From an archaeon (lineage in GTDB: Archaea > Iainarchaeota > Iainarchaeia > Iainarchaeales > JAAZKV01), in assembly GCA_041653195.1 (NCBI GenBank), contig JBAZFU010000001.1, positions 70,545 through 134,544 on the forward strand: a stretch of DNA of 64,000 nucleotides, in the 5' to 3' direction. The translations under genes and the position numbers were made by a program. The notes beneath the pieces are model-generated. The model was given only the letters and a program-made list of their open reading frames with translations. It made no database searches and was not told the origin of the DNA. Below, in pieces: positions 14,392-63,745 of this stretch. Every line of letters starts with the position of its first letter. The first letter of the stretch is position 1.

Positions 14392-14435
14392 TTTAATACA
14401 AAAAATAGTTTTAAAAAAATCAGAGGATTGAGAAA

Positions 14436-14576
14436 ATGGAAGAAAGAGCACAAATAAATTTAGAGTACCTGTTAATAATCGCGGGAGCAGTAGTAGTAGC
14501 AACCACTGTGGGATTGTTCATAAAACAAAGCGCGTCCGCAATAACAAGTTCCGCTCAAGAACAGGCACAGAACTAA
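14436..14576 (+). CDS. small Flp/Epd-like pilin (46 aa), class III signal peptide
   Basis: Not in ORF track (<60 aa). MEERAQINLEYLLIIAGAVVVATTVGLF...; GAGG RBS 8 nt upstream; Q-x-x-x-EY motif followed by a hydrophobic helix. Confidence 0.6.
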   Translation: MEERAQINLEYLLIIAGAVVVATTVGLFIKQSASAITSSAQEQAQN

Positions 14577-14680
14577 AAAAACCACGTATTCTTATTTGGA
14601 AAAAAAATCCAAAACATTTAAAAACCAGAAAAACCTTATAGCTCCAGAATTATTCTTACAACCAAAAAGGAGGTTTACAA

Positions 14681-14944
14681 ATGAAAGGAAGAGGACAAGG
14701 ATCGCTGGAGTACCTGCTCATAATCGGAGCAGCACTAATAATCGCGATAATTGTAATTGCAGTAGTAACCGGACTTGGTTCAAACAATGCTCCACCAACA
14801 AGTGATGTTCAGGCACAAGCCGATGTTGGAAAATGCCTAAACAATTGTTGTGAATTTGGAATAAATTCTGATAAAAACTGTGAAACAATAAATCCTGCTG
14901 CATGCCAATTGCCAGACAATAACAGCAACTGGAAGGGCTGTTAA
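14681..14944 (+). CDS. class III signal-peptide pilin with Cys-rich C-terminal module
   Basis: 87 aa; MKGRGQGSLEYLLIIGAALIIAIIVIAVV; AAAGGAGG RBS; C-terminus has 6 Cys including the CLNNCC motif. Confidence 0.7.
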   Translation: MKGRGQGSLEYLLIIGAALIIAIIVIAVVTGLGSNNAPPTSDVQAQADVGKCLNNCCEFGINSDKNCETINPAACQLPDNNSNWKGC

Positions 14945-15099
14945 AAAAAATATTCTATTTCGGGATGACGCCCAAGAATAAGCATTTTTGGGCGCCATTT
15001 CTAATTTTTTTAAATTTTCAACCATAAATATTTTCCAATTTTTTATCCCGATTGCATTAAGGCAAATGTTTAAAAACTAGAAAAGCGTTATAGAACACA

Positions 15100-15591
15100 A
15101 TGGACAAACGCGGACAAGGCGCACTAGAGTACCTGCTCATAATCGGAGCAGCGCTGGTAATTGCAATAATAGTTATTTCTGTAATAGTTTTGACTGGGAC
15201 ATCTACTGACACAAGCGCCTCAACATCAAGTGCAGCAAACAAGTTGGACCAAACGAACTGTCTAAACGACTGCTGCTACAAAAGCAAAACAAGCGACCAA
15301 AACTGCGAAACAATACTTTCAAATTACTGCGCAATACCTCCTGCAAGCAGCGACGACTCGAATACTTACAAATATGAAAACTATTACAAGGAATGCGTTC
15401 CGAATTTCGTGAGAGGGGGCGATATAGCAAAATGTACTGCCACTATAAGCGGGTGCTGCTACAATGCTCCAACAACCGATAAAAACTGCGACTTAATAAT
15501 TCCAAGCGTTTGTATAGGTCCGACAAATTGCGCGGATTTGCCGACACAACCAGAAATAGACGCGTGCGACGCCAGATACCAAGGCTGCTAA
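15100..15591 (+). CDS. class III signal-peptide pilin with large Cys-rich C-terminal domain
   Basis: 163 aa; MDKRGQGALEYLLIIGAALVIAIIVISV; 16 Cys; shares the CLNDCC motif with neighbours. Confidence 0.7.
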   Translation: MDKRGQGALEYLLIIGAALVIAIIVISVIVLTGTSTDTSASTSSAANKLDQTNCLNDCCYKSKTSDQNCETILSNYCAIPPASSDDSNTYKYENYYKECVPNFVRGGDIAKCTATISGCCYNAPTTDKNCDLIIPSVCIGPTNCADLPTQPEIDACDARYQGC

Positions 15592-15689
15592 CATTAGGCT
15601 TAAATTATTCTTTCTGCAACAGAAACTATTTTTGTTTGCACCAAAACCATAAACACAATCTTTAAATACCTGAATGAATTATTATTAGC

Positions 15690-16046
15690 ATGGAAAAATC
15701 AAAACGCGGACAAGGTGCAATAGAGTACCTGCTTCTTCTAGCTGCAGGAGTAATAGTAGTTGCAGTAGTGATGATATTTTTAATTAACTCAACAACCGTT
15801 GGAAAAGAAAGCGGTTGCGCCGGTTTAAACACGTATTTGTGCGACAACTTAGACTCTAATACCGAGACCTGCGCATGCTATACCGGAAATGCAAACGGCT
15901 ACTGGTCAAGTTTGGATTGTAATACCAGTGTCTGCAAAGGACAACAAGCTTCTGTGTGCTGCAATAAGGACTGTACAGAACTCAACAGCAAGTGGAAGGA
16001 TACGAACAGCCAGTTAGGACCAACAAGTCCAAAACTTTGCGGATAA
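15690..16046 (+). CDS. class III signal-peptide pilin with Cys-rich C-terminal domain
   Basis: 118 aa; MEKSKRGQGAIEYLLLLAAGVIVVAVV; 10 Cys. Confidence 0.7.
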   Translation: MEKSKRGQGAIEYLLLLAAGVIVVAVVMIFLINSTTVGKESGCAGLNTYLCDNLDSNTETCACYTGNANGYWSSLDCNTSVCKGQQASVCCNKDCTELNSKWKDTNSQLGPTSPKLCG

Positions 16047-16065
16047 AAAAAACCAAGTGTCAAAA

Positions 16066-16243
16066 AATGTTTGAAGAAGAAAGAGCGCAAGTTTCTTTCG
16101 AATACCTACTCACAGCAGTCTTTGGAATAATGCTCGCGATAAGCGCCGCAATAATCATAGAAACTCTAAGAGAAATCGCATTGCGTGCACAGGCAGACAT
16201 ACTAACCACAAGAGAAGAAGTAATCACGAATATAATGGAATAA
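16066..16243 (+). CDS. small Flp/Epd-like pilin (59 aa)
   Basis: ATG at 16066 inside the longer ORF 15992..16243; MFEEERAQVSFEYLLTAVFGIMLAISAAII; paralog of the 14436 gene (ERAQxxxEYLL). Confidence 0.55.
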
Positions 16244-16317
16244 AATTTTCAAATCAAAAACTTGCTGCAAAATAAATGGTTTTTTAAACACAAAAAACAA
16301 TCTCTTATTGAATCAAA

Positions 16318-17439
16318 ATGTTTCTAGCACTTCCAATAATCGCCTCGATAATTGGGCTTCTGGGCGCGACCTACACGGACCTTAAAGAAAGAATAGTGCC
16401 AAACAAGCTGAATTACGGGCTGGCAATTACGGGAATATTATTATATTCTGCGCAAAGCGTAATCGAATCAAACGCGACCCCTGTTCTTTATTCAATTGGG
16501 GGGCTCGCCGCAGGATTCGTATTCGGATGGGCCCTGTGGAAAATCGGAGTATTTGCCGGAGGAGACGTAAAATTATTTGCCGGACTCGGAGCACTTAACC
16601 CAGTAACCCCCTTCATCGCACAAACGCTTCTGCCTATTCAAATTTCTTATATTCAAATTCCTTTCATTTTTCCGATAACTCTTTTCATAAATTCATTAGT
16701 AGCATTCCTTCCATACGGACTAATAGTATTGCTTTACAAATTATCAAAAAACAAAAAATTTCAAAAAAAAATAGCAGCCGAAATGCTTACAAAAACAAAA
16801 CAAGCAATACACCTCGCTCTTTTTTCCGCCGCAACCTATACCATACTGACAGCCCTTTCAATAAACCCGATTATTTCAATCGCCATCGTAATAATTTGGA
16901 GCCTTACTAGAAACCTCAAAAAAATAATCACTGCAATTGCTTCAATAGCGGCAATTTCACTAAATTTTTCTGTATTTGGACAGGCTTTTGTAGCAATCGC
17001 CATTGTGACTGTAATACTTTACGGAATAATCAAACTGCTTTTTTCATTAAGACCGCTGTTATCAAAAGAAGTTTTGATTACTCGCCTTGAAGAGGGAATG
17101 ATTCCTGCAGACACTTTTGTGAAAAAAGACGGCAAAATAATAATTGCTGAAAAAATTTCGTTCAAACAAATAATTAAATACGCGAAAACACAAAAGATAA
17201 GTGAAATGGTAAAAGAATTCTCCTTACAGAAAAAGGAAATTATTTCTGCAAACAGGGCCAGGGGGCTCACTTTGAAAGAAATTGCAATTGTAAAAAAATT
17301 TGCAAAAGAAGGAAAAATGCCAAAAAAAATAACCATAAAAGAATCGATGCCATTTGTTCCGACAATGATGCTCGGTTACCTGCTCTGCATGGCCGCAGGA
17401 GACTTTATAATAATGACTTTGCTGAAGGTGATTTTTTGA
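16318..17439 (+). CDS. A24-family prepilin/preflagellin peptidase (PibD/FlaK/EppA-like) with C-terminal extension
   Basis: 373 aa; catalytic-Asp motifs TYTDLKERIVPN and FAGGDVKLFAGLGA; polytopic membrane protein. Confidence 0.75.
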   Translation: MFLALPIIASIIGLLGATYTDLKERIVPNKLNYGLAITGILLYSAQSVIESNATPVLYSIGGLAAGFVFGWALWKIGVFAGGDVKLFAGLGALNPVTPFIAQTLLPIQISYIQIPFIFPITLFINSLVAFLPYGLIVLLYKLSKNKKFQKKIAAEMLTKTKQAIHLALFSAATYTILTALSINPIISIAIVIIWSLTRNLKKIITAIASIAAISLNFSVFGQAFVAIAIVTVILYGIIKLLFSLRPLLSKEVLITRLEEGMIPADTFVKKDGKIIIAEKISFKQIIKYAKTQKISEMVKEFSLQKKEIISANRARGLTLKEIAIVKKFAKEGKMPKKITIKESMPFVPTMMLGYLLCMAAGDFIIMTLLKVIF

Positions 17440-17897
17440 AACGCGGACAAACATCAATCGAGTTCATAATAATAATTTTGATAGTTGTGTTGTTTGTAAT
17501 AACTACTACAAAGCCGCTGATTGAAAACGCCAAAGGGATAACTGAGGACATTGTAAATATTACAAGAGCAAACAGCGAAACAAAACGAATTGCCAATGCC
17601 GCAACGGAAATATCTCTAATGGGCGTCAGTTCAAAAAAAACAATCGAAGTTTCTATTCCTGCAAAAGCAACACTGCACTGCTACCAAGACAAAAATGTCG
17701 GATTTACTGTTGAATTACAAGTTCCGCCTTATCCAAAAGACTGCAATAACGGGATATGCGACAAAAATATTCTAACGCCAACATCATTCAACGGCAGTTC
17801 GCCAATTTCGTGCAATTCGCAATTCGAAAATATAAAAGGTCAAAAAACGATAGTAATTGAAAAGGACGATGAATCAAAAATTTCAATACACCCGTAA
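17436..17897 (+). CDS. class III signal-peptide (pilin-like) protein
   Basis: 153 aa; MKRGQTSIEFIIIILIVVLFVI; 4-nt overlap with peptidase gene. Confidence 0.6.
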   Translation: MKRGQTSIEFIIIILIVVLFVITTTKPLIENAKGITEDIVNITRANSETKRIANAATEISLMGVSSKKTIEVSIPAKATLHCYQDKNVGFTVELQVPPYPKDCNNGICDKNILTPTSFNGSSPISCNSQFENIKGQKTIVIEKDDESKISIHP

Positions 17898-33171: not shown

Positions 33172-33200
33172 CGGGCTCTGGGGGAATCGAACCCCCTGCT
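33172..33200 (-). pseudogene. orphan tRNA 3'-fragment (T-arm + acceptor 3' strand) immediately downstream of tRNA-Ala
   Basis: Minus strand reads GGGGGTTCGATTCCCCCAGAGCCCG (T-stem/loop/stem + 7-nt acceptor strand + discriminator); no matching 5' half nearby. Confidence 0.4.
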
Positions 33201-33209
33201 ATTTTTTAA

Positions 33210-33282
33210 TGGACCGTGGGGGATTCGCACCCCCGACCACGCCGTTGCGAACGGCGGATCATAACTGCTAGACCAACGGCCC
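33210..33282 (-). tRNA. tRNA-Ala (anticodon CGC)
   Basis: Manual fold: acceptor GGGCCGT/ACGGTCC with G3:U70; anticodon stem CGCCG/CGGCG, loop TTCGCAA; T-arm GGGGG-TGCGAAT-CCCCC; 73 nt. Confidence 0.8.
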
Positions 33283-34410
33283 TGGCAATATCTTACCTGT
33301 TTCGCAGAACTCTTTATATTTGTTTAGAATTCTTGGGTTGCTACTGCCAATTAGTTCAAACCACTTGTGTGTGTTTTCTATGCCTCTAACACTTACACTT
33401 TCCGCATGAACAAATGCCTTAATTCCCTGTTTCAAAAGTATTTCTTTTATTTGATTTCGCAAAACTGGGCTGTAAGAACAAATTGTCACATAAGGATACC
33501 TGAATCGCTCATCCTTTCTTGCATTCATGTGACCATCTGTATCAAGCAAACCTCTAATCACAAAATTCAAGTTCTCAGTTTTAAGGCTTAAAAAATTATT
33601 CGAGATTCCGAAATCTTTTGGCTTTCCATTTGTATGATAACCATTGCTTAAAAGCCATTCATAAAATAGCCTACTGCTGAATTGAAGACGCACTGAATTA
33701 TCTTTACGAAAAAATATTGCCGGCTTAATTGGGAAATACTTTCTAATTATCGCATCAAGATACTTAACGTATTCTACGTCTTTTTTTGCGTTCCCAACAA
33801 TTGCCCCGTGATAAACATATTGCCCAGAGCTTTTTGAAAAATATTTCCCACAATGGCCATCGCCCAGCATTGCCCCAAATAATTCACACAATTCTGGATT
33901 TGCAATATCGGGAAAACCGTCATAAGTTTCCCAAGTTATTTTCTTCTTACAAGACCTAACTTTTTTTAGGTGCTTTCTAAACCCGCTTTCCCCCAAACAC
34001 TTTTTCATAGTTCTTATTGAATTTGTTCCGCCTTTTTTGGCGCCCCAATTATTTGGCAAAAAATTTATCTGTTTTAAAAATTCAAATTTTTGTTCAGTAG
34101 GCAAATAATTCAATAACCCGAAGAAAACTCTCGAAGGAAAAGTTATTTCGCCTCGCCTTATTCTCTTGAGACCTGTATTTCCAATGTTGAATTCTTTAAG
34201 CCATTCATTCCAAGAAACATACTTCTGAGAAGCTTTCGCAAGAGCAAATAACTTTCTCGGATTTGGAATTCGGACTCTCCGGTCGCTTTTATCCTCTTCC
34301 ATTTCAGATTTTTGTTTTTCTTCGTTTTTAACCGCATCGGAGCTTTCATGCCAGTCATTCATCAAAATCACCCTCCGAAAAGTTTTCCAAAATCCAGAGT
34401 TCCCTTCCAT
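33268..34410 (-). CDS. HTH + double-motif LAGLIDADG homing-endonuclease-like protein (paralog 1)
   Basis: 380 aa; LAGLIDADG motifs FGAMLGDGH and GLLDTDGHM; N-terminal HTH-like region; stop codon lies 15 nt inside tRNA-Ala 5' end. Confidence 0.65.
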   Translation of the reverse strand: MEGNSGFWKTFRRVILMNDWHESSDAVKNEEKQKSEMEEDKSDRRVRIPNPRKLFALAKASQKYVSWNEWLKEFNIGNTGLKRIRRGEITFPSRVFFGLLNYLPTEQKFEFLKQINFLPNNWGAKKGGTNSIRTMKKCLGESGFRKHLKKVRSCKKKITWETYDGFPDIANPELCELFGAMLGDGHCGKYFSKSSGQYVYHGAIVGNAKKDVEYVKYLDAIIRKYFPIKPAIFFRKDNSVRLQFSSRLFYEWLLSNGYHTNGKPKDFGISNNFLSLKTENLNFVIRGLLDTDGHMNARKDERFRYPYVTICSYSPVLRNQIKEILLKQGIKAFVHAESVSVRGIENTHKWFELIGSSNPRILNKYKEFCETGKILPGPLV

Positions 34411-35236: not shown

Positions 35237-35267
35237 GTTTTCGCCGGCCTTTTGGAAAAAGGCCGAA
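35237..35267 (-). repeat. hairpin + GGCGAAAAC repeat unit (tRNA-trailer/intron module family)
   Basis: Minus strand: TTCGGCCTTTTTCCAAAAGGCCGGCGAAAAC directly after the tRNA 3'-exon fragment. Confidence 0.6.
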
Positions 35268-35301
35268 TGCAGCCGCCGGGATTTGAACCCGGGTCATAGC
35301 C
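35268..35301 (-). pseudogene. tRNA 3' exon remnant (positions 39-73; acceptor strand CGGCTGC) preceded by intron-like sequence ending AATTAG
   Basis: Minus: GGCTA-TGAC-CCGGG-TTCAAAT-CCCGG-CGGCTGC-A; upstream is an intron-like module as in the tRNA-Gly introns; no 5' exon within about 200 nt. Confidence 0.4.
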
Positions 35302-35310
35302 TAATTCCAT

Positions 35311-35389
35311 TTTTCGCTAATTTTCGCCAACCTTTTCGAAAAAGGTTGTTCGCCGGCCTTTTTTTTAAAAAGGCCGAATGCGACCGCTG
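35311..35389 (-). repeat. two tandem hairpin-repeat units plus tRNA-Gly(GCC) 3'-end-like 13-mer
   Basis: Minus: CAGCGGTCGCATTCGGCCTTTTTAAAAAAAAGGCCGGCGAAC + AACCTTTTTCGAAAAGGTTGGCGAAAAT; mirrors tRNA-Gly(GCC) 3' end + trailer at 58856-58897. Confidence 0.55.
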
Positions 35390-35488
35390 TACAGCTACCA
35401 AAAAAGTTGTATCGCCCTCCACCTTTGTTAGACTTTTAACCTAACTTAAATGCTACAAAAGTAGCATGTAAAGAGATATAAAAATATA

Positions 35489-36546: not shown

Positions 36547-37329
36547 CTAAAAATCACGTATTTTTAATAATTCATCAACTTTTTTGAACCATTTAATATC
36601 TTCACTACTTAGTTTCATTTTTTTTGAGTCTTTTTTTAACCTATTAAGCATTTTATGAATATCTTCCTGAAAAGCAGATCTATCTTTTTCAGGATAGAAT
36701 TTGGCATACCTTATGCGCATTTCTACAGAATAAACAAATTTAAGCACTCCTGACCAATATGTGACCAAAGGTCTATCGCCATCCATGCTAATATCCATAG
36801 AACCTTTTCGCAGAGGAAGCTTAGTTCTTTCAATAATCCATTTATTCGCTTGAGCCAAAAGAAGCAAATCATAATCTAAATCAATCAAAGAATACAAATG
36901 AAGCTCTTTATCATTTTTTAAAGGAAAAAGAAAAATTCGCCACTTATCTTCCTCCGAATCTTTAAATACTCCATAACTGAAAGAATGAGTAAGTTTTCTG
37001 ATTATTTTCTTTTCATTTTTATCATACGCAACGAATGCGTTTAATCCAAGATATGGGTTAATATATCCAAGGAACCCCGAATTTTCTCCAATAATCATTT
37101 GGGTATTAATTAATACCGATACCACATCTTCTGCTATTTTTTGAACTTGTTCTTTGGCAGACTCTTTTGAATATAACACATTTAACGAAACATTAATCCA
37201 TTCAAAATTTAGGTCCGGGGCAACAATTTTTATGGCTTCTTCATTTTTTTCTAATTTTGGGTCATCCAAATTATTTGTTTTTTTGAAAAAATCAAATGCG
37301 CCCATTAAATCAACTCCTTTTTGTGCCAT
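36547..37329 (-). CDS. hypothetical protein
   Basis: 260-aa ORF; no recognisable motif; lies between the LAGLIDADG paralog/tRNA-Gly and the repeat cassette. Confidence 0.45.
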   Translation of the reverse strand: MAQKGVDLMGAFDFFKKTNNLDDPKLEKNEEAIKIVAPDLNFEWINVSLNVLYSKESAKEQVQKIAEDVVSVLINTQMIIGENSGFLGYINPYLGLNAFVAYDKNEKKIIRKLTHSFSYGVFKDSEEDKWRIFLFPLKNDKELHLYSLIDLDYDLLLLAQANKWIIERTKLPLRKGSMDISMDGDRPLVTYWSGVLKFVYSVEMRIRYAKFYPEKDRSAFQEDIHKMLNRLKKDSKKMKLSSEDIKWFKKVDELLKIRDF

Positions 37330-38374
37330 TATGCGGCTTACGGGAATTGAACCCGTTCATCCACCTTGGGAAGGTGGAATCATACCAGTAGACCAAAGCC
37401 GCTTTGAATGGTTCTTCAACTTGCAAGCCAGTTATTTCACTCCAAATACATTCCTTTAATGGAATTTCCCCCGTTTCAATGAAATACTTGTAGCGCATAA
37501 TATTTTTAGGGTTTGCACAACCCACCAACGTTAAGAACCGATGCACTTCCTCTTGCCTTTGAATTCTCACATTAACATCACTTTTTGAAGGAGCGAATCC
37601 AATTTGCCAGAGCATTTGATAAAGATTTGACCTTATTTGAGGAGAATCAGTTTGAAATTCTATTATTAATCTTTTATACTTTTTCTGTTTTTGATAAATT
37701 CCCCCATCTGTGTCCAAAAGCCCTCTCAACGCACCATAAATATATACGTCTTTTTCAAAAATCCATCGTGGAAGAGATACCTTATTTTTTATTTTATCTC
37801 CCAAAACAAGCGAGTTTTTGAGCAAAAATTTTACTAACTCTGTTGAGTTTACTTTCAATTGCATCGCGTTTGAATTTTTTAACCGAAATATCTTAGAGCT
37901 CAAACCAAAAAGCTGCTTAATCATATTTTGCAAATATTTGTAATGTTCAATTTCATAAAAATTGCCAGTTATTGTAAGTGTTTTCGAATCAATATGCCCA
38001 TCGCCCAGAATTACTCCGAAAAGCTCCGCTAATTTTTCACTTTTCTCAGGCACTTTAATATTCTTTTTATTTTTACCGCCACCCAATTCCTGCCCCCAGT
38101 TTTTGGCAAGGGTTTTTTCCACCCACTTTTTTCTAATCACAACCCAACTTTCAAAAGGGTGTTTTGCTAAAAGCCTTTTTGCATAGCTCAGCGGAATCGT
38201 AGTGCGTTCTTTTCTCCAATCTATTCTAATAGTGTGTTCTGACAAATTCAACTCTTTTGCTAAAGCAATCCATGTCAAGCCGCTTTTTTTCTTAATCTGT
38301 TCAATAAACTTTCTTTGCAATCCTTTCTTGAACTTGACTCGTTCTTCCCTGATTAGTTCGCCAACTTTCCTCAT
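37310..38374 (-). CDS. HTH + double-motif LAGLIDADG homing-endonuclease-like protein (paralog 2)
   Basis: Start taken at Met61 (ATG 38374) of ORF 37310..38554; motifs FGVILGDGH and GLLDTDGGI; N-terminal region aligns with paralog 1; reading frame continues through the whole tRNA-Gly(CCC) before the stop. Confidence 0.6.
   Translation of the reverse strand: MRKVGELIREERVKFKKGLQRKFIEQIKKKSGLTWIALAKELNLSEHTIRIDWRKERTTIPLSYAKRLLAKHPFESWVVIRKKWVEKTLAKNWGQELGGGKNKKNIKVPEKSEKLAELFGVILGDGHIDSKTLTITGNFYEIEHYKYLQNMIKQLFGLSSKIFRLKNSNAMQLKVNSTELVKFLLKNSLVLGDKIKNKVSLPRWIFEKDVYIYGALRGLLDTDGGIYQKQKKYKRLIIEFQTDSPQIRSNLYQMLWQIGFAPSKSDVNVRIQRQEEVHRFLTLVGCANPKNIMRYKYFIETGEIPLKECIWSEITGLQVEEPFKAALVYWYDSTFPRWMNGFNSRKPHNGTKRS
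37332..37402 (-). tRNA. tRNA-Gly (anticodon CCC)
   Basis: Manual fold: acceptor GCGGCTT/AAGCCGC; anticodon stem CCACC/GGTGG, loop TTCCCAA; T-arm ACGGG-TTCAATT-CCCGT; 71 nt. Confidence 0.8.
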
Positions 38375-38470
38375 AAGAAAATATTTTTGTGCGAATTTTA
38401 TATTTGCTTCTGGACTGCCGTGCCGGTGACCGGCCAAATTTGTAAAATGATCACAAAAAGAGCAAATAAA

Positions 38471-38502
38471 GGAATTGAACCCTACCACTAGACTACGGCT
38501 GC
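38471..38502 (-). pseudogene. internally deleted tRNA-like fragment (acceptor 5' strand GCAGCCG + D-arm fused to T-arm-like GGGTTCAATTCC)
   Basis: Minus: GCAGCCGTAGTCTAGTGGTAGGGTTCAATTCC; 5' strand complementary to the acceptor 3' strand of fragment 35268-35301; T-arm identical to the tRNA-Gly(CCC) T-arm. Confidence 0.4.
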
Positions 38503-44055: not shown

Positions 44056-44110
44056 GAAAACTGCTGTATTTTCTTTTGTTTAAAAGCGCTTTGAGGGTTC
44101 CATGCCGGTC

Positions 44111-44176
44111 AGCCTTCGGCCTTTTAAAAAAGGCCGGCGAAAAGGCTTCGCACCCCTAAAAGACTGGCGAAAAATT
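44111..44176 (+). repeat. free-standing copy of the hairpin + GGCGAAAAGGCTTCGCA module (intron-like repeat family)
   Basis: CGGCCTTTTAAAAAAGGCCGGCGAAAAGGCTTCGCACCCCTAAAAGACTGGCGAAAAA; near-identical to the first half of the tRNA-Gly(GCC) intron. Confidence 0.6.
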
Positions 44177-45778
44177 TTACAGAAACGAATCCGTTTCTGT
44201 TTCTGAGGCTTCTTCCGCGGCGGAAAACATTCTCGCCGCTTCCTCCAAAGAAAACTCGTGCTTGCTCGGCTGGGACTTGCGCATTCGAACTCTGAAAAAA
44301 GTCGGAGCATTAACCGCTTCGCCAAGGAGAAGCGCTTCGCCGACGCGGAGCGAAGAAACCAAATCCATGCTCGACTGGTCAAGGGCTTCGCTGCTCTCCG
44401 CAATATGCTTCAAATCATAAGGGTTCGTAATTCGGAGAATAACATTAGTGTTGCAGTTTGCAAGCGTAGTTGTGTCAAGGTGCTTTGGCCGCTGGGAAAT
44501 AATTACAAGCGACGCACCGAACTTTCTGCCCTCACGCGCAATGGTTCGCATAATTCCCTTTGCAATCGCATACTCTTCAGCCGTTTTTTCCGGAATAAAA
44601 TTATGCGCCTCTTCCAGGAAAAGCGCGAAAGGAGGAATCCCCCTTTTCAAGCGGCGATCCCTGAACAATTTATTCGCGAAATAAGCGACAATAATTTGTT
44701 TTTTGCGCTGAGAAATTATCCTACTCAAATCAATAACTGTGAGTTGGCCCTGCTTAACCAAATCCTGAATACTCGGATTATCGATTTTTGAAAACAAGTC
44801 AAGGTCCTCTAATTCGCCGACAGTAGCGAGAATAGTGGAAGCGGTTTTCTCATTCAAATCCGACTGCATTATTTCACTCTTAATCGCATTCAAATCGAAA
44901 GGACCAACACCGCTCTTCATTTCCGAAGAAAGCTTCGAAATTATTGAAGATAGTTCGCGCCTCTGAGGAGAAGAAAGCTTCGGAAGAATCATTGAAAGAA
45001 AACCAGAATCAAGTTTTGAAGCAGCAATTTTAACTTTAGATGCGTCAACTACACGCGTCTTGGAAGAAAAATCAACGTATTTTCCGGAATCTTTTTGCTG
45101 AACAGGTTCGCCGAAACAAGTGTACTCTCCGTGAATATCAAAAACGACGATTGCGATTTGGCCTTGTTCCTTTGTGCGCGACAAAATTTCTTCAATAAGA
45201 GAAGCGGCAAAAACTGATTTTCCCGCACCGCTCAAAGCGAGAACCGCCAAGTGCTTTTGAAGAAGACGGGAAAGATTCGGTGCAACATCAACATTGTGAA
45301 ACTGCATGCGCCCGAGCTTCAAACCATTATCGTCAAAACCTAAAAAATCTTTCAAGCGCGAATCTTCCGCAGCATAAACTTTTGTTCCTGGTGAGGGGGG
45401 GAAAGATGTGCGTTCAACAACAACTTTTCCTTCTGAATTTTTTTTGAAAACCCCGAGCGGACGCGCCTTTCCGAGCAAAAACTCCCACTCCGCAGTCGGA
45501 AACTTTCTTTCAAGCTCGTCGCCAATTTCCTTCACCGAATCTGGACGCTCAAAATACTTGTTCGTTTTCACAACATCATTAACGCGGCAAATCATTACTC
45601 CTTCCGAATAATCCAATTCCACAAACATTCCCTTGTGAACCTTTCCGTTATTCACAACAAAATCCATTATTGTGGGTGAGGGCCCTTCGAAAGTCGACAC
45701 AACCGTTCCTAAAACTTCTCTCTCGCCCCCAAAACTTTTCTCGACTTCCTTTGCACTTTCTTTTCCTTTAACAGCCAT
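44177..45778 (-). CDS. herA: HerA-like bipolar DNA helicase/ATPase
   Basis: 533 aa; Walker A LALSGAGKS; HerA-type HAS-barrel + FtsK-like ATPase pattern; beside a NurA-like gene. Confidence 0.75.
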   Translation of the reverse strand: MAVKGKESAKEVEKSFGGEREVLGTVVSTFEGPSPTIMDFVVNNGKVHKGMFVELDYSEGVMICRVNDVVKTNKYFERPDSVKEIGDELERKFPTAEWEFLLGKARPLGVFKKNSEGKVVVERTSFPPSPGTKVYAAEDSRLKDFLGFDDNGLKLGRMQFHNVDVAPNLSRLLQKHLAVLALSGAGKSVFAASLIEEILSRTKEQGQIAIVVFDIHGEYTCFGEPVQQKDSGKYVDFSSKTRVVDASKVKIAASKLDSGFLSMILPKLSSPQRRELSSIISKLSSEMKSGVGPFDLNAIKSEIMQSDLNEKTASTILATVGELEDLDLFSKIDNPSIQDLVKQGQLTVIDLSRIISQRKKQIIVAYFANKLFRDRRLKRGIPPFALFLEEAHNFIPEKTAEEYAIAKGIMRTIAREGRKFGASLVIISQRPKHLDTTTLANCNTNVILRITNPYDLKHIAESSEALDQSSMDLVSSLRVGEALLLGEAVNAPTFFRVRMRKSQPSKHEFSLEEAARMFSAAEEASETETDSFL

Positions 45779-47617: not shown

Positions 47618-47680
47618 AATAGAAAGAATTCTTTAATATAAAAAGGTTTTGAGAGCAACGTGCCGGTCGAAGAGCAATAG

Positions 47681-47710
47681 TTTTCGCCAGCCTTTTAGAA
47701 AAAGGCTGAA
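47681..47710 (-). repeat. hairpin + GGCGAAAAC unit immediately 3' of tRNA-Ala(GGC)
   Basis: Minus: TTCAGCCTTTTTCTAAAAGGCTGGCGAAAAC. Confidence 0.55.
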
Positions 47711-47781
47711 TGGACCCTGCGGGAATCGAACTCGCATCAAATCCATGCCATGGATCTAGCTTAACCATTAGCAGAAGGGCC
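47711..47781 (-). tRNA. tRNA-Ala (anticodon GGC)
   Basis: Manual fold: acceptor GGGCCCT/AGGGTCC with G3:U70; anticodon stem GATCC/GGATT, loop ATGGCAT; T-arm with one mismatch; 71 nt. Confidence 0.7.
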
Positions 47782-47895
47782 CTGCCACAAAAATAGTCTG
47801 AGAAAAACTATTAAAAAGAAACCAGAGACAAAACAAAACGGAAAAATGAAACCGAACCAAATCCTTTAAATACCTTCATATGAAGAATAATTCAT

Positions 47896-52935: not shown

Positions 52936-53285
52936 AAAATTACCTCCCTTAAACTATTCTTGTTCTGAATTCTTATTCAAAACATAATGAATACTTATTC
53001 ATAACCTTTTAAAAAGGTTCCGCCGAACGAAAAAATCCGCGAAAATACTGAAAACAAAGGAGTTAAAGCTGAGAAACATTCTCAATAATCTTCTTCAACA
53101 AAACTTTCTTCTTAATCGATTTTTCCTTAGAAAGACGCATTTTCAGCTCGTCCAAAATATCGTCGTTTGAAAGCTTCATAAAAACCAATTCCTCAAAAAT
53201 CAACCGTTTAAAACCAAGCTCTGTTAGAAAAAATTTGGAATGAATTGTTTTTAAAGAAATACTACAAACAAAACTTAACAAACTT

Positions 53286-58692: not shown

Positions 58693-58863
58693 CGCGACCG
58701 TAGTCTAACGGTTATGATTCAACCTTGCCAACAGCCTTTTAAAAAAGGCTGGCGAAAAGGCTTCGCAACGGCTTTTTGAGAAAAGACCGGCGAAAAAACG
58801 CAAACAAAAAATCAATAAAAAAGCAATTAGGTTGAGGACCGGGTCCAATTCCCGGCGGTCGCA
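58693..58863 (+). tRNA. tRNA-Gly (anticodon GCC) with 99-nt intron at 37/38
   Basis: 5' exon GCGACCG-TA-GTCT…CAACC-TTGCCA; 3' exon A-GGTTG-AGGA-CCGGG-TCCAATT-CCCGG-CGGTCGC-A; intron about 58731-58829 carries two hairpin-repeat units. Confidence 0.7.
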
Positions 58864-58897
58864 TTCGACCTTTCAGGAAAAGGCCGGCGAAAAAAGG
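58864..58897 (+). repeat. hairpin + GGCGAAAAAAGG unit in the tRNA-Gly(GCC) trailer
   Basis: TTCGACCTTTCAGGAAAAGGCCGGCGAAAAAAGG. Confidence 0.5.
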
Positions 58898-58904
58898 CGT
58901 TAAA

Positions 58905-59066
58905 TTGAAAAAAAAATTTGAAAAAGTTTGTCCAAAGTGCAAAAGTGAAAGCATAAAACAATGGCTGCCTCAAATAACAAATTCATGGGAATGCGGCAAC
59001 TGCGGAAACACAAACTTCTACCCTATCGAAATAAAAAAACAAAGCAACACAAAAGTGATTAAATGA
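58905..59066 (+). CDS. small Zn-ribbon protein (about 53 aa)
   Basis: Not in ORF track; putative TTG start; …KVCPKCKSESIKQWLPQITNSWECGNCGNTNFYPIEIKK…; stop overlaps ATG of the next gene. Confidence 0.4.
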   Translation: MKKKFEKVCPKCKSESIKQWLPQITNSWECGNCGNTNFYPIEIKKQSNTKVIK

Positions 59067-59725
59067 ACAAGAAAAGCATGCTGATAATTACAATAATAAT
59101 CGCTTCAGCGGCGATAGCGGCCATATCATACTCTGCCATGCCTGACCCGATGGCGACACACTGGGGAATAAACGGCGAACCGAACGGTTACTCCGACAAA
59201 TTCTTCGGAACCTTCCTGATGCCCGGAATAATATTCCTGATTACAGCGTTACTAATATTCATTCCAAAAATTGATCCGCTAAAAGAAAACATAAAAAAAT
59301 TTTACAGTTACTACGAAAATTTTGTAATTGTCATTATCGGATTCATGCTCCTCACCCAAATATTTATGCTTCTGTGGAATACGGGCATAAAAATTAATCC
59401 CTCAATCGCAATCCCCCTTGGAATCGGAGTGCTTTTTTACTATGCGGGAATAATGATGCAAAAAGCAAAAAGAAACTGGACAATCGGAATAAGGACGCCG
59501 TGGACGCTAAGCAGCGAAAAAGTCTGGGACAAGACCCATAGGCTCGGCGGCAGAATGTTCCGAGCCGCCGGAATAATATCCCTAATCGGGGCATTCATAC
59601 CCGCCTATTCCTTCTTTTTCATAATAGTGCCCGTGCTGTTATCTTCAGCCTGCCTGATAGTTTATTCCTATTTAGAATATAGAAAAGAAATGCGCAAAAG
59701 CAAAAATAGAAAAAAAAGAAAATAA
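59063..59725 (+). CDS. DUF1648/SdpI-like membrane protein
   Basis: 220 aa; N-terminal TM + HWGINGEPNGY motif typical of DUF1648; 4 more TM helices. Confidence 0.5.
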   Translation: MNKKSMLIITIIIASAAIAAISYSAMPDPMATHWGINGEPNGYSDKFFGTFLMPGIIFLITALLIFIPKIDPLKENIKKFYSYYENFVIVIIGFMLLTQIFMLLWNTGIKINPSIAIPLGIGVLFYYAGIMMQKAKRNWTIGIRTPWTLSSEKVWDKTHRLGGRMFRAAGIISLIGAFIPAYSFFFIIVPVLLSSACLIVYSYLEYRKEMRKSKNRKKRK

Positions 59726-59750
59726 AAAAATTTAGAAATAAACCAAACAA

Positions 59751-60710
59751 TTACTTTCTTCTTTTCTTAATCGCCTTCGATTTGCGAGCCGCTTTTGCAA
59801 AACGCTTTGAAGCGATTTTTCTGGGGTAGAGCACGCGCCATGAAAGTATTCTTCTTATCTTGTTAGAAGAATCCTGGTGTTTAACGGCTTGAGAGTATAA
59901 CCTGGTAACGGAAAAACAATAACCAACCACAAAAACAGAAACCCCGAACGCGGTTCCAAAAATTCTTGCAAATTCCAAATCACTCAATGTTGTCCCATCA
60001 AAAAAAGAGTGAAACCCCACCGATAAGAGAACTATATTCGCTATTGTCGATGCGAAAAAAGACGACACGGCGCACAAAAAAAACAAGAACACTAAAAGAA
60101 CACAAAAAGCAGAAAACAATCCTCCAAAACGCTGATGCGTCAAACTCCATGAACCCCTCAGTGCATCGCCTATTTTAGTTCCTCTGTTCAAAATAATAAG
60201 CGACGAAAACAAAAGTCGAACTGAATTATAAACTATGCATGACAAATAAATCGCCAAAAGAAAAATAAAAGATAAAACAACAACCCAAGATGAAACAACA
60301 GACAAAGTAATTACCGCCAAAAAAATTCCTACGAGAGAAAGAATTTGAATGCGCCTATAACGCCTGCTCATAGACCAAACAAATATGTACCAGAGCTCAA
60401 AAACCTGAAGAAAAAAAACATCCAGTATTTTGGAAACAGAAATTTTAACCGTTTGAAATCCGGCTGATTTGAGACAAAATCCTAACAAAAAAACTATTCC
60501 GACAAAAATTACTGCCTGTGCGATATAGTAAACATCATTAAAAATAGAAAAAACATTTTCTGAAACTACAAGATTTCCCCAAAAAATCGCGTCAACGCCC
60601 TGAATAAAAAAAACGGCCAAGAAAATCAAAAAGAAAAAAAGAAGGTAAACAAGAGCCTTGCCCTGAAAAACCCATCTATAAGTAGATTCTATTATTCCAT
60701 CATAATCCAT
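59751..60710 (-). CDS. polytopic membrane protein, function unknown
   Basis: 319 aa; 7 or more hydrophobic helices; basic C-terminal tail. Confidence 0.45.
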   Translation of the reverse strand: MDYDGIIESTYRWVFQGKALVYLLFFFLIFLAVFFIQGVDAIFWGNLVVSENVFSIFNDVYYIAQAVIFVGIVFLLGFCLKSAGFQTVKISVSKILDVFFLQVFELWYIFVWSMSRRYRRIQILSLVGIFLAVITLSVVSSWVVVLSFIFLLAIYLSCIVYNSVRLLFSSLIILNRGTKIGDALRGSWSLTHQRFGGLFSAFCVLLVFLFFLCAVSSFFASTIANIVLLSVGFHSFFDGTTLSDLEFARIFGTAFGVSVFVVGYCFSVTRLYSQAVKHQDSSNKIRRILSWRVLYPRKIASKRFAKAARKSKAIKKRRK

Positions 60711-60762
60711 TCTAAACTAATGCTTTTCTAGTTTTTAATAATTACTTTCTGAAAAAAAGCGC

Positions 60763-61401
60763 TCACTGAAGAACTTCATCCAAAAAAGGCTTTATTTGGG
60801 CAAAAACTTCGTCAACAGACTTATTCGCATCAATTATTTTTATATTTTCATTCGGCAAGAGCTTTGGCGCATCCAAAAAAAGTTTTCTCAAACCCGAAAT
60901 GAATTCTAATCCCCTGAACTTGTCAGATTCCTTTCTTTTCTCGGACTTTTCCGAATTCATGCGCCCATAAGCTTCCGCAGGTTCGACATCAAGAATGACT
61001 GCCAAATCCGGTGCCAAAAAATTTTTGTGCGCCGCAAAAACTTTCTCAAAGTCGTTGCCTTGCGCCGTTTGATACGCAATACTTGAATATTTGTAACGAT
61101 CACAAATCACTACAAAATTCTTTCCAAGCGCCGGCTTAACGATATTTTCAATATGCCACTCCCGATCCTTCACAAACAAATCAAAAATTTCTTCAGCCAA
61201 ATCCTCCGAAGACTTTTGTTTTTTGAAACACTCGCGAAGCTCTAAACCGTAGGGTCCGCGCGTCGGCTCATCAGTAATAAGAATATTATCAAATTTTTTG
61301 CTCTTATCGTAAATGTACTCAAAAGTTTTTTTTATCATCGTGCCTTTTCCACAGCCCGAAATTCCGTCAAAAGCAATAAAAATTCCTTTCCTTTCAACCA
61401 T
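60763..61401 (-). CDS. P-loop (d)NMP kinase, thymidylate-kinase-like paralog
   Basis: 212 aa; P-loop FDGISGCGKGT; dNK/Tmk-like fold features; tandem with tmk. Confidence 0.55.
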   Translation of the reverse strand: MVERKGIFIAFDGISGCGKGTMIKKTFEYIYDKSKKFDNILITDEPTRGPYGLELRECFKKQKSSEDLAEEIFDLFVKDREWHIENIVKPALGKNFVVICDRYKYSSIAYQTAQGNDFEKVFAAHKNFLAPDLAVILDVEPAEAYGRMNSEKSEKRKESDKFRGLEFISGLRKLFLDAPKLLPNENIKIIDANKSVDEVFAQIKPFLDEVLQ

Positions 61402-61423
61402 TAAATCGCCCGCAATATTTAAT

Positions 61424-62071
61424 CTATTTCTCCAAAACCTTTTTTACTTCCGCCCAAACCATTTCGTGAATCTCTTCAACTGAAAGCAGGGAATCGTTTT
61501 TAACGCAATTAATTTTACTCCATCCAAGATCGCCGATGTTTCTCTCATACTCCGAAAAAACATTTCTTTGAAAACTTTTATCCGACTCGTGCTGATCCAT
61601 TTTTTCAGCCCTCTTAGCCATTAATTTTTCCGCAAAGTTTGGTGAAACTGAAAGCACCAAAACCAAGTCTGGCACAGGAAGCCGCTCACATGCTTTAGAT
61701 ATCCATTTCCACAAAGAATCTTTTTCACTTTCTTTTGCAAGCGCGACCTGATAAGTGAGCGTCGAAGTGAAATACCTGCTCAATAAAACATTTTTCCCGC
61801 TTTTGAGCAAATTTTCAACCCTGCTTTTCGATTCATAAAAATCAGTCATATACAGAAGCGAAATAAACTCTGGCGGCAAATCCTCTTTTGCCCCAAATTT
61901 TCCGTCCAAATAATCATCAACAACTTTTCCAAAAGACTCGCCGTGCTTAGGAAAATGCATTTGCTCAACATGAAAGCCCTCACTTTGAATACGCTTAAAA
62001 AGAAGCTCCAATTGAGTCGATTTTCCGGACCCATCCGTGCCTTCCAAAACTATTAACTTTCCATCCATCAA
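61424..62071 (-). CDS. tmk: thymidylate kinase
   Basis: 215 aa; LIVLEGTDGSGKSTQ P-loop characteristic of dTMP kinase. Confidence 0.8.
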   Translation of the reverse strand: MMDGKLIVLEGTDGSGKSTQLELLFKRIQSEGFHVEQMHFPKHGESFGKVVDDYLDGKFGAKEDLPPEFISLLYMTDFYESKSRVENLLKSGKNVLLSRYFTSTLTYQVALAKESEKDSLWKWISKACERLPVPDLVLVLSVSPNFAEKLMAKRAEKMDQHESDKSFQRNVFSEYERNIGDLGWSKINCVKNDSLLSVEEIHEMVWAEVKKVLEK

Positions 62072-62215
62072 AACCGTTCAAAGAAAGGCACGAACCAATT
62101 AAAAATGGTTTTAGCGCACAAGCATGAATTTAAAAAAGAAACCAAATTTAAGTTAGTTAATTGAAAAAAAAGTGTCATCGCGGAGCGATGGCACGCGTAA
62201 CGCATATGCAATAGC

Positions 62216-62377
62216 GCGTCCGTGATGTAACGGTAGCATGAAAGCCTTCCACGGCCTTTTTCAAAGGCCGGCGAAAAGCACTGTCTTCGCTTTTGGCTCG
62301 ACAGAGCGTGCTTCGCAGGTTTTGTAAAAAAAAACTGGAGTTAGCTTTCCGTCGGGGTTCAAATCCCCGCGGGCGCA
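62216..62377 (+). tRNA. tRNA-Gly (anticodon UCC) with about 91-nt intron at 37/38
   Basis: 5' exon GCGTCCG-TG-ATGT…AAAGC-CTTCCA; 3' exon A-GCTTT-CCGT-CGGGG-TTCAAAT-CCCCG-CGGGCGC-A; intron about 62252-62342 starts with the hairpin-repeat module CGGCCTTTTTCAAAGGCCGGCGAAAAGC. Confidence 0.7.
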
Positions 62378-62380
62378 TTT

Positions 62381-63745
62381 TCATTCTTTTCTTTTTTTTA
62401 AAAACTCCTTAAAAGAATTATAATCATTTTCAATCAAACCATACTCTTCTTTTTTATTCGCGACTTCCATTAATGCGGGGTGAAGCGAAGGCTTCATGTT
62501 CAACAAGGATTCAATTTCTTCCGGAAATTTTGAAGGATGCGCGGTTTCAAGCGAAACAAATTTTTCGCCAGGAAAAGTGTCTTCTTTTTCTAAAAAAACT
62601 TCCAAACCCTTCCAAGCAACAGCGCCGTGAGGCTCAAGAAGCAACATATAATTTTTGTAAGCATTAATTATTGCTTCACGGGTTTCAGAATCCGAAACGC
62701 TAACAGCAAAAATTTCTTTCCTCAATTTCTCCATATTCGGAAGTTTTTCAATATTGCCGTTCTCATCCATTTTCCCAGTATACAAATCAATTAAGCGGGA
62801 AAGATTGCTCGGGTGACCGACATTCATCGCGTTCGAAATGCATCCTTTCGAAGGAACAATCTTCTCATACTTTCCCGTTTCAACAAATTTTGAGAACTCG
62901 TCGTTCTCATTCACCGCAACAACAAATCTTTTTACAGGCAAACCCATTCTCTGCGCAATGAGACCGCCGCACAAATCACCGAAATTTCCGGAAGGAACTG
63001 AAAAAACCACTTCTTCGCCTGGAGCGGTTGCAACGCGCGAGTACGCATAAAAGTAATAGACTGCCTGCGGAATGAGGCGCCCCAAATTAATTGAATTGGC
63101 TGAAGAAAAATTGTATAAGGTGTTCAAATCAGGGTCGACAAAAGCGCGTTTAACCATTGCCTGACAATCATCAAATTTTCCCTTAACAGCGAGAACAAAA
63201 ACATTTTTTCCGAGAGTAGTCATCTGTTTGCGCTGATTTGGAGTAACTTCTTTTTCCGGAAAAAGAACAATCACTTCAATATTATCCAAACCATAAAAAG
63301 CGTTTGCAACCGCGCTGCCGGTATCACCACTCGTTGCAACCAAAATTGTGAGTTTTCTCGCATCCTCGCGCATAAAATAATTCATTAAGCGGGCCATAGC
63401 GCGCGCAGCAAAATCCTTGAAAGAAGCGGTTGGGCCGCCATCCAAACGGAGCACGTAAGCTTCATGCGGAAAACCTTTAATCTTCTCAAGCGGGACAGAA
63501 AAATTGTAAGCATCCTTAACAATCGTCTCCAATTCTGCCGCAGGAATTTCATCCGCCAAAAATTTTGAAATAACTTCAAAAGCGATTTCATAATACTTCT
63601 TTTCTTTAAAGCCGAAAATTTCTTTCTGTGAAAATTGAGGAACGGATTCGGGCATGAACAGCCCTTTGTCCTCGGCAAGACCCTGCAAAAGAACATCCTT
63701 GAAAGAGGATTTCGAGGAAATGCCGTTCGTGCTATAATAATTCAT
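62381..63745 (-). CDS. thrC: threonine synthase
   Basis: 454 aa; PLP-binding Lys motif PTASFKDFAARAM; fold-type II PLP enzyme. Confidence 0.85.
   Translation of the reverse strand: MNYYSTNGISSKSSFKDVLLQGLAEDKGLFMPESVPQFSQKEIFGFKEKKYYEIAFEVISKFLADEIPAAELETIVKDAYNFSVPLEKIKGFPHEAYVLRLDGGPTASFKDFAARAMARLMNYFMREDARKLTILVATSGDTGSAVANAFYGLDNIEVIVLFPEKEVTPNQRKQMTTLGKNVFVLAVKGKFDDCQAMVKRAFVDPDLNTLYNFSSANSINLGRLIPQAVYYFYAYSRVATAPGEEVVFSVPSGNFGDLCGGLIAQRMGLPVKRFVVAVNENDEFSKFVETGKYEKIVPSKGCISNAMNVGHPSNLSRLIDLYTGKMDENGNIEKLPNMEKLRKEIFAVSVSDSETREAIINAYKNYMLLLEPHGAVAWKGLEVFLEKEDTFPGEKFVSLETAHPSKFPEEIESLLNMKPSLHPALMEVANKKEEYGLIENDYNSFKEFLKKRKE

Follow-up and report, generated by a model that had tools for sequence, protein, structure and literature searches.

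We describe here a short palindromic cassette in a 64-kb stretch of archaeal DNA (contig JBAZFU010000001.1; the window throughout), where it opens the introns of two glycine tRNA genes, tRNA-Gly(GCC) and tRNA-Gly(UCC). Both genes are real and are split at position 37/38 by introns with the predicted geometry of the protein-spliced bulge-helix-bulge (BHB) type. The cassette is a conserved, tRNA-associated member of a wider, old and dispersed family of palindromic repeats in the non-coding DNA of DPANN archaea; some of its sites were inherited vertically, whereas at others copies have come and gone and have been duplicated and recombined as DNA. With moderate confidence, we regard it as a reusable structural element that provides the intron-side hairpin h' in introns and a terminator with a run of five T (T5) after tRNAs, with a spread resembling that of bacterial repetitive extragenic palindromes (REPs).

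The host is an archaeon of the Iainarchaeota (Diapherotrites, DPANN). The G+C content of the window is 38-40%, and the archaeal-type proteins HerA, NurA, a Rad50-like ATPase and pilins with class III signals are encoded in it. The closest relative with the gene order kept is the Candidatus Iainarchaeum (Diapherotrites, DPANN) metagenome-assembled genome GCA_026397015.1, whose threonine synthase (ThrC) is 76% identical. Its locus is labelled L243, and the other loci compared also carry L-numbers; in a second relative, L244, ThrC is 85% identical.

Splice geometry and conservation of the two tRNA-Gly introns

The tRNA-Gly(GCC) gene occupies 58694-58863 of the plus strand, with exon 1 at 58694-58730, an intron of 98 nt at 58731-58828 and exon 2 at 58829-58863. 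The tRNA-Gly(UCC) gene occupies 62216-62377 of the same strand, with exon 1 at 62216-62251, an intron of 91 nt at 62252-62342 and exon 2 at 62343-62377. Both introns lie at 37/38 and have the 90-100 nt that a first-pass annotation of the DNA had given them; the Gly(GCC) gene that it had placed at 58693-58863 was recovered as well, with the start moved by one base to the 58694 given by ARAGORN. The two genes were called only by ARAGORN with introns allowed (ARAGORN -i), and both were missed by default ARAGORN and by Rfam at the gathering threshold, which returned five intronless tRNAs in the window. In permissive mode, the Rfam tRNA model scored the tRNA-Gly(UCC) gene at 43.7 bits. The exons of each gene join into a canonical cloverleaf.

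The anticodon arms were laid out by hand and by script. In both pre-tRNAs, the predicted BHB comprised the anticodon stem, a 3-nt bulge UU^A38, a 4-bp helix and a second 3-nt bulge made of C36, A37 and, across the cut, the first intron base. The 4-bp helix is formed by bases 32-35 and the four intron bases preceding the last two, giving UUGC/GCAA with the bulges CA^A and UU^A in Gly(GCC), and CUUC/GGAG with the bulges CA^C and UU^A in Gly(UCC). The introns end in GCAATT|A (GCC) and GGAGTT|A (UCC), and the ending A(A/G)TTA that they have in common is due to the layout of the 4-bp helix and the 3' bulge. One layout was present in all six cassette-initiated introns, namely those of Gly(GCC) and Gly(UCC) in the window, both orthologs in L243, Gly(UCC) in L244 and tRNA-Thr(CGT) in L140; across these six, the helix survived sequence change (GGAG, GAAG, GTAG), and the bulge bases differed. 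The exon-intron junctions of both window genes and of the four further introns are predicted to fold into BHB motifs, the check that the first-pass annotation had proposed.

The cassette, 28-32 nt in length, opens each Gly intron one base past the 5' cut. It consists of a 9-10-bp stem-loop (C-R-GCC-U4-5 / A4-5-GGC-Y-G) and the following GCGAAAA. The introns start with ACAGCCTTTTAAAAAAGGCTGGCGAAAAGGCTTCGC and CGGCCTTTTTCAAAGGCCGGCGAAAAGCAC...CTTCGC, in each case a GC-clamped T/A hairpin and then GGCGAAAAG. Scored with a covariance model built from 45 DPANN copies of the cassette, copy 1 of the Gly(GCC) intron (58729-58759, plus strand) reached 47.5 bits; its hairpin, CAGCC-UUUU/AAAAAA-GGCUG, stands 1 nt past the 5' splice site and precedes GCGAAAA. 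A degenerate copy 2 (CGGCUUUUUGAGAAAAGACCGGCGAAAAAA; 58766-58797, plus strand; 32 bits) is not conserved in L243. The copy at the start of the Gly(UCC) intron (62249-62278, plus strand; 40.6 bits) reads C GGCC UUUUU C AAA GGCC G GCGAAAA, and its GCGAA also pairs with UUCGC downstream.

The long-range inner helix h' cannot form in these introns. The local 9-10-bp cassette hairpin begins directly after the 5' bulge, and a connector of 8 to ~60 nt, unpaired or otherwise folded, lies between it and the 4-bp helix. In the pre-tRNA, the cassette stem-loop would occupy the place needed by h', and the hairpin, the 4-bp helix and the anticodon stem would together frame the two 3-nt bulges cut by the endonuclease. 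Judging from this predicted fold, the local hairpin may serve as a relaxed splice motif; relaxed motifs and endonucleases of broad specificity have been documented in DPANN archaea (PMC5829648). The sense cassette also opens a canonical intron in L140, a metagenome contig, where the 36-nt intron of tRNA-Thr(CGT) is composed of A, the hairpin, GCGAAAAA, CGGG and AG, and where the fold of the pre-tRNA had a z of -3.75. Unrelated long introns of other DPANN contigs likewise start with a U/A hairpin, 1-3 nt behind the 5' cut. With RNAalifold, three Gly(UCC) orthologs yielded the cassette hairpin but no cloverleaf.

Comparison with the relatives showed that both introns are old and vertically inherited, since they occupy the same site in orthologs of relatives whose ThrC is 76-85% identical. 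The gene order around both Gly genes in L243 is that of the window, with introns of 105 and 96 nt at the same site, and the UCC intron of L244 has 81 nt. The exons were identical between the window genes and their orthologs (GCC in L243; UCC in L243 and L244), and in the orthologous introns the cassette was kept while the remainder had strongly diverged. Copy 1 of Gly(GCC) showed in L243 a two-sided stem change from AGCC/GGCT to GGCC/GGCC with GGCGAAAA unchanged, and the Gly(UCC) cassette showed in L244 a two-sided change of a GC to an AU pair. Presence among the relatives was patchy for the trailer copy behind Gly(GCC) only and for neither intron: this trailer cassette is absent from the L243 ortholog, an indel between the species, and in the 21 kb of L243 the covariance model found no copies besides those of the two introns. 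The leader of tRNA-Gly(UCC) (62165-62215) was noted separately; it contains a GC-rich hairpin, GTCATCGC GGA GCGATGGC, and ACGCATATGC directly 5' of the gene is invariant in L243 and L244, with the next three bases nearly so, a conservation unusually strong for a 5' leader.

Copies of the cassette and their turnover in the window

The covariance model found nine strong copies in the 64 kb, all of them non-coding and between 35.2 and 62.3 kb, and eight of these were inside or at most 4 nt from tRNA genes or tRNA relics. With nine such copies to ~60 genes, the view of the first-pass annotation that the module belongs to a tRNA-tied repeat family rather than to idiosyncratic introns held up, as did its view that the module is not a generic terminator placed after most genes; all the further copies that it had listed (35237-35267, 35311-35380, 44111-44176, 47681-47710 and 58864-58897) were present. 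Perfect hairpins of the cassette type numbered eight in the window, against 1.5 expected from dinucleotide shuffles, a statistically solid excess over chance. Six of them were in or beside tRNA genes or relics, and seven carried GGCGAA on the matching strand. The eighth is a hairpin-only variant at 53003-53033 (plus strand; 15 bits for the hairpin part only), in which AACCTTTTAAAAAGGTT is followed by CCGCCGAACGAAAA with CGAAAA, and it lies between two minus-strand open reading frames (ORFs).

Behind tRNAs, the cassette begins 0-4 nt past the discriminator, and it would there set a T5 run a few bases downstream of the tRNA (8 nt in the window copies). The trailer copy of tRNA-Ala(GGC) (the gene at 47711-47782 and the copy at 47680-47711, both on the minus strand; 47.2 bits) consists of the discriminator A, TTC, the hairpin with its T5 run at 47696-47700 and GGCGAAAA. 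That of tRNA-Gly(GCC) is degenerate (58863-58894, plus strand; A|TTC GACC TTTCAGGAAAA GGCC GGCGAAAA; 29 bits), and a third, at 35237-35268 (minus strand; 45.7 bits), follows a relic 3' exon of tRNA-Gly(CCC). A run of T5 or longer was present in 7 of 7 trailer copies and in 15 of 63 other copies (Fisher p = 1.4e-4). Its presence in every trailer copy suits an oligo-T terminator, and the run most likely acts as one in transcription.

Among the matches listed, the outer stem pair was C-G in 227 of 233 copies, and the one stem position left free by the search pattern was Watson-Crick in 222 of 233, with three pair types. Beside this covarying stem stands the invariant, single-stranded tail GCGAAAA. 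The flanks of ~70 copies, compared as they would be for a miniature inverted-repeat transposable element (MITE), shared no target-site duplication, and their only symmetry was the hairpin itself; an 18-bp direct repeat in L125 proved to be a duplicated tRNA 5' end and not a target-site duplication. Rfam 15 at the gathering threshold gave tRNA matches only in the window and 20 loci, with no family for the cassette, both intron regions, scanned permissively with Rfam, yielded no credible match to it, and no description of it was found in the literature searched. Several identities were considered and set aside. A C/D-box or k-turn tail was rejected by eye, as neither box nor any tandem GA pairs were seen; a hammerhead (stem and CGAAA) lacked the CUGANGA half; and a TATA box or promoter in the T/A stem did not agree with loops that often contain G or C and with a variable spacing to genes. 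A test of G:U against A:C mismatches for RNA- or DNA-level selection was dropped because the imperfect copies were too few.

Outside the 28 nt of the cassette, the alignment of the two window introns has 38 matches in 82 positions (46%), which is near background, and both introns are orthologous in relatives, so that transposition of an intron between the two Gly genes, as proposed in the first-pass annotation, was not borne out. Its broader proposal of a mobile or recombinogenic repeat family stood in part: the duplication at 44.1 kb, a chimera at 35.3 kb and the trailer copy absent from L243 show duplication and recombination, and no movement of the introns themselves was seen. It follows from such duplication and recombination at the DNA level that a free-standing copy and a chimeric tRNA relic are present. 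The free-standing copy (44114-44176, plus strand) has two units, unit 1 being intact (44114-44144; 44.6 bits) and unit 2 degenerate (44148-44174; 9.9 bits), and is bordered by the stop codon of a HerA-like gene of the minus strand (44177) on one side and by the start of the next gene on that strand (44055) on the other. When 44116-44178 was aligned with the first 70 nt (two units) of the Gly(GCC) intron, 53 of 71 positions matched, with one 8-nt deletion. The motif GACCGGCA(Y)G-N7-CTCAAA was observed nearby on the minus strand at 44066-44108 and again at 47627-47670, just upstream of a TTTTAAA-type box; it precedes the NurA gene and a 500-aa ORF downstream of HerA, and could be a common regulator site of the repair cluster. 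An assignment of 44085-44117 as a decayed tRNA 3' end was dropped, as the motif recurs in the NurA promoter region.

The relic at 35268-35308 (minus strand) derives from an intron-bearing tRNA-Gly(CCC) and retains the intron 3' end GGAATT and the 3' exon AGGCTA...CGGCTGCA (35268-35302). It is 79% similar to the 3' half plus trailer of Gly(GCC) and matches the tRNA-Gly(CCC) of L130, an unrelated metagenome contig of 60% GC; its GGAA would pair with UUCC, and an anticodon CCN is therefore implied. In L130, as in the relic, the tRNA-Gly(CCC) 3' end is followed by three bases (CTC; TTC in the relic) and then by the cassette. Two tandem cassettes at 35320-35351 and 35352-35376 (minus strand; 44.9 and 26.7 bits) formed the intron of the old gene. 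On their 5' side they are joined to ...GCGGTCGCA TTC, which is identical to the junction of the tRNA-Gly(GCC) 3' end and its trailer, and is not a 5' exon. The 'tRNA-Stop(tta)' called by ARAGORN at 35268-35398 (minus strand) is accordingly a chimera of a trailer-type junction and an intron 3' end with a defective D arm, as would be expected if a trailer copy had recombined with an intron copy. A 5' fragment of the old tRNA-Gly(CCC), GCAGCCGTAGTCTAGTGGTAGG, lies at 38481-38502 (minus strand); it is near-identical to the 5' end of the L130 tRNA-Gly(CCC), and its acceptor strand is complementary to CGGCTGC in the 35268-35302 relic. A split tRNA assembled from the fragments at 38502 and 35268 was rejected, because the two lack the 5' strand of the anticodon stem and enclose an intact replacement gene.

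Between the relic 3' exon and the 5' fragment, a LAGLIDADG gene and an intronless tRNA-Gly(CCC), with an acceptor stem unlike that of the relic, were observed at 37310-38502 (minus strand). The LAGLIDADG reading frame runs into the tRNA and ends ~15 nt inside it, and its product belongs to a 328-aa family with 72 clusters. The same overlap was present in four of four other genomes examined (L245, L247, L249 and L250, ~4001-5085), with differing neighbouring genes and with remnants of an older tRNA flanking the units, and the same architecture was present in L096 (1900-3230), with hairpin modules at the junctions. A paralogous LAGLIDADG ORF (33172-34410, minus strand; 28% identity, E = 7e-23) reads into the 5' end of tRNA-Ala(CGC) (33210-33282), and a tRNA 3' remnant, GCAGGGGGTTCGATTCCCCCAGAGCCCG, lies 10 nt past that tRNA at 33172-33199. 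The Gly-linked unit has the look of a mobile homing-endonuclease cassette which brings along a copy of the very tRNA that it displaces, and the older tRNA-Gly(CCC) seems to have given way to such fusions of LAGLIDADG genes with intronless tRNA genes.

Distribution beyond the window and rival explanations

The cassette pattern was scanned once over species-representative genomes and once over metagenomes. The majority of the matches listed came from REP-like multi-hairpin intergenic repeats of Oscillospiraceae, Ruminococcaceae and other Clostridia. DPANN-type matches numbered at least 13 from the genomes and at least ~45 from the metagenomes; among the matches listed, the genomes bore the titles Iainarchaeum (at least six), Pacearchaeota (at least one) and Woesearchaeota (at least one). 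A scan of viral contigs gave two matches, both with Clostridial-type flanks. In 443 kb of DPANN loci, ~75 full-length matches to the covariance model were found, and at least one third of them were within 100 nt of a tRNA, tRNA neighbourhoods making up ~2% of these loci. The sense cassette stands 0-4 nt past the 3' end of tRNAs for Ile (L082), Leu (L121), Gly-CCC (L130) and Pro (L228), and other DPANN copies lie 1-85 nt from further tRNAs. Relative to ORFs, 20 copies were sense and 17 antisense before starts, and 12 were sense and 16 antisense after stops.

Further arrangements of related hairpins were seen in these loci. Two Ser-type tRNA genes, L034 2605-2851 (minus strand) and L199 413-681 (plus strand; called Val(aac) by ARAGORN), have canonical introns of 161 and 189 nt that are built from U/A hairpins, three or four in tandem, with GCCTTGGGAAA behind each and an antisense cassette as the last unit. 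In L125 (1376-1450), L171 (1-140, minus strand) and L096 (1900-1990), a duplicate of the first 18-20 nt of a tRNA, ending with AGC(A)GCC of the D-loop, is fused to the cassette; the junction uses CAGCC, which the D-loop and the hairpin arm have in common, and the intact tRNA lies 13-17 nt past the cassette. The AT-rich DPANN contigs L192 (9100-9233), L178 (5450-5650) and L223 (6100-6320) contain intergenic arrays in which differing T/A hairpins are joined by G..AAAA linkers; one 29-nt tandem repeat, GAAACTTTTCAGTAAAAGTTTCTTTTGAT, reaches the contig end. The Clostridial repeat (most of L002-L120 and L121-L242; e.g. L073 22-46 and 3258-3282) is multi-hairpin, intergenic, very abundant and often at contig ends, has no Rfam family, and closes with a unit, GCCGCCTTTTGAAAAAGGCGGGCGAAAACTTT, which fits the archaeal cassette pattern exactly. 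These look-alikes were rejected as transposon ends, because ordinary genes (TatD, EF-G, HAD) lie between the inverted copies, and they are therefore REP-like spacers.

The structural reading fits the placement of the cassette at tRNA genes, and several observations weigh against it. The invariant GCGAAAA tail is explained neither by a role as h' nor by one in termination, and a T4-T5 run within the introns of essential tRNAs fits poorly with efficient termination in trailers. The hairpin in the introns is a local stem-loop and not the classical long-range h', so that the motif is not strict hBHBh'. The 'compensatory' stem changes are explicable by gene conversion between family variants without selection on RNA structure, copies outside tRNA loci have no orientation bias relative to ORFs, and near-identical units of hairpin and GCGAAAAC occur in the Clostridial REP-like repeats, in hosts without such splicing. 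In a further scenario, hairpin and GCGAAAA would be the recognition site of a dedicated factor shared by DPANN archaea and Clostridia, and a cross-domain element, by inserting after position 37 and gaining a 6-nt tail complementary to the anticodon loop, would have given rise to canonical DPANN tRNA introns. We consider this scenario improbable; a transposase or nuclease that acts on hairpins in single-stranded DNA, or else a protein of RNA processing, might be the factor, and the 36-nt intron of L140 would be the minimal example of such an intron.

The absence of an ORF orientation bias would also be expected of a selfish palindromic repeat, similar to REPs or MITEs, which has no RNA-level role, is tolerated in introns, trailers and spacers, was possibly moved by a hairpin-recognising single-strand transposase, and is held near its consensus by gene conversion. 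The dispersal of copies over many DPANN lineages in both orientations, the intergenic arrays and up to four units per intron, the Clostridial look-alike family with its frequent position at contig ends, the indel turnover of the trailer copy, the intron segment duplicated at 44.1 kb and the tRNA 5' fragments fused to the cassette at D-loop microhomology (L096, L125, L171) are all in keeping with it. The exact, strand-specific placement at tRNAs is not, the cassette standing in the tRNA sense 1 nt past the 5' splice site or 0-4 nt past the discriminator; nor are the retention of orthologous copies across species while the surrounding intron diverged and the enrichment of T5 among trailer copies. 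No transposase was found among the 20 window ORFs scanned against Pfam, and there are no target-site duplications and no terminal inverted repeats besides the hairpin. We judge this explanation to be on the unlikely side. Less probable still is the mobile intron proposed in the first-pass annotation, whose core would be the cassette and which would transpose between tRNA genes and also land elsewhere. Such transposition has been described among archaeal tRNA genes (PMC4090602), the same start (A37|ACAGCC UUUU...) occurs in the non-orthologous Gly-GCC of the window and Thr-CGT of L140, the complete L140 intron is the cassette plus 7 nt, and the intergenic DNA at 44.1 kb repeats a part of the Gly(GCC) intron. 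Against it, the two Gly introns have only the 28-nt cassette in common, their orthologous positions in relatives leave no recent movement visible, each intron 3' end is tailored to its own anticodon loop, and most copies elsewhere are outside introns, with some intron copies being antisense (L034, L199). Nor is it shown that the module is intron-derived; the same cassette occurs in trailers, leaders and intergenic arrays of many DPANN genomes, and its look-alike occurs in Clostridia, which lack such introns.

The T5 run of every trailer copy would equally be expected of a generic bidirectional terminator or insulator at gene ends, with the intron copies being accidental, since T runs are present on both strands (CCTTTT in each arm, TTTTCGCC antisense). 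The 44.1-kb array, directly after the HerA-like stop and with four T runs within 60 nt on the gene strand, the 53003 variant 25-60 nt past an ORF stop, and the palindromic T/A hairpin arrays between genes of AT-rich DPANN contigs are compatible with this idea. It is very doubtful, because the strong copies are so few and so confined to tRNA loci, copies precede starts as often as they follow stops, two essential tRNAs keep the cassette within their introns, a place where stopping transcription would do harm, and neither the invariant GCGAAAA tail nor the covarying GC clamp is needed for oligo-T termination. The invariant single-stranded tail beside a covarying stem, the known RNA cleavage site 0-4 nt upstream of the hairpin in both tRNA contexts and the conservation in orthologous introns might instead indicate a recognition element for a dedicated protein, or a small RNA with a defined 5' end that is released by splicing from intron copies and by RNase Z from trailer copies. 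Here we found no conserved sequence past the tail, so no apparent guide or cargo, no Rfam match or C/D boxes, and no candidate protein, and many copies lie beside no processing site; this is the least probable of the explanations, and very unlikely.

Relation to known introns, repeats and mobile elements

To remove canonical archaeal tRNA introns, the splicing endonuclease cuts at the BHB motif (PMC4090602; for relaxed forms and the enzymes of DPANN archaea, PMC5829648). The cassette introns agree with them in the 37/38 site, the two 3-nt bulges, the 4-bp helix, the anticodon stem outside and the normal cloverleaf of the exons, but differ in their length (81-105 nt), in an inner helix that is the local stem-loop of a dispersed repeat family, and in the 8 to ~60 nt between this hairpin and the central helix. 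In the Thermoproteales type, related introns occur in different tRNA isoacceptors of one genome, and their spread is thought to be at the DNA level (PMC4090602). Here, too, introns of different isoacceptors of one genome have related sequence, but it is a cassette of 28-32 nt that is shared and not the whole intron, all the introns are at the canonical site and have orthologs across species, and the cassette is equally common in trailers and intergenic DNA. In Caldiarchaeum subterraneum, a tRNA gene is disrupted by a mobile element with a DNA recombinase (Sugahara et al. 2012, PMC3293823). The window resembles this case in that an enzyme gene separates a tRNA 5' fragment from an intact copy of that tRNA 1-2 kb downstream, and in that tRNA fragments are scattered by recombination; the intervening gene here, however, encodes a LAGLIDADG homing endonuclease and ends inside the intact tRNA, and the cassette marks some of the junctions. 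The LAGLIDADG-tRNA unit is analogous to, yet distinct from, the Caldiarchaeum recombinase element (PMC3293823).

As in bacterial REPs and bacterial interspersed mosaic elements (BIMEs), the cassette is a short, imperfect, extragenic palindrome in multiple copies with a stem kept by covariation and a conserved tail. REPs and BIMEs are short imperfect extragenic palindromes present in many copies, with a conserved unpaired motif beside the stem, and are found singly, in tandem or in arrays. The cassette differs from them in its strong, strand-specific tie to tRNA genes and introns and in its archaeal host, and to our knowledge no transposase of the REP-associated tyrosine transposase (RAYT) type is associated with it. 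Archaeal oligo-T terminators have a T run soon after the transcript 3' end, and the T5 of the trailer copies, a few bases past the tRNA 3' end (8 nt in the window), is similarly placed; in contrast to them, this run lies within a conserved palindrome with a fixed tail, and the unit occurs also in introns and not after genes generally.

Other features of the window were noted in passing. A cluster of short ORFs (14435-17476) shares the N-terminal RGQG-xLEYLLIIG, a class III signal peptide, as in archaeal type IV pilin-like proteins. Outside archaeal relatives, the threonine synthase (62381-63745, minus strand) is closest to bacterial enzymes, e.g. those of Bacteroidales (~60% identity), which suggests, on sequence similarity, that it may have been acquired horizontally; two tandem thymidylate-kinase paralogs (60763-62071, minus strand) lie beside it.

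The origin and persistence of archaeal tRNA introns are an open question, and here long canonical introns are built from a portable cassette. The way in which a dispersed palindromic repeat could turn into an intron fit for splicing becomes concrete and testable, the tRNA-Thr intron of L140 being little beyond the cassette, and the cassette is a defined element for endonuclease and termination assays. The apparent replacement of resident tRNA-Gly(CCC) genes by endonuclease-plus-tRNA units bears in turn on the idea that introns protect tRNA genes from attack at the DNA level.

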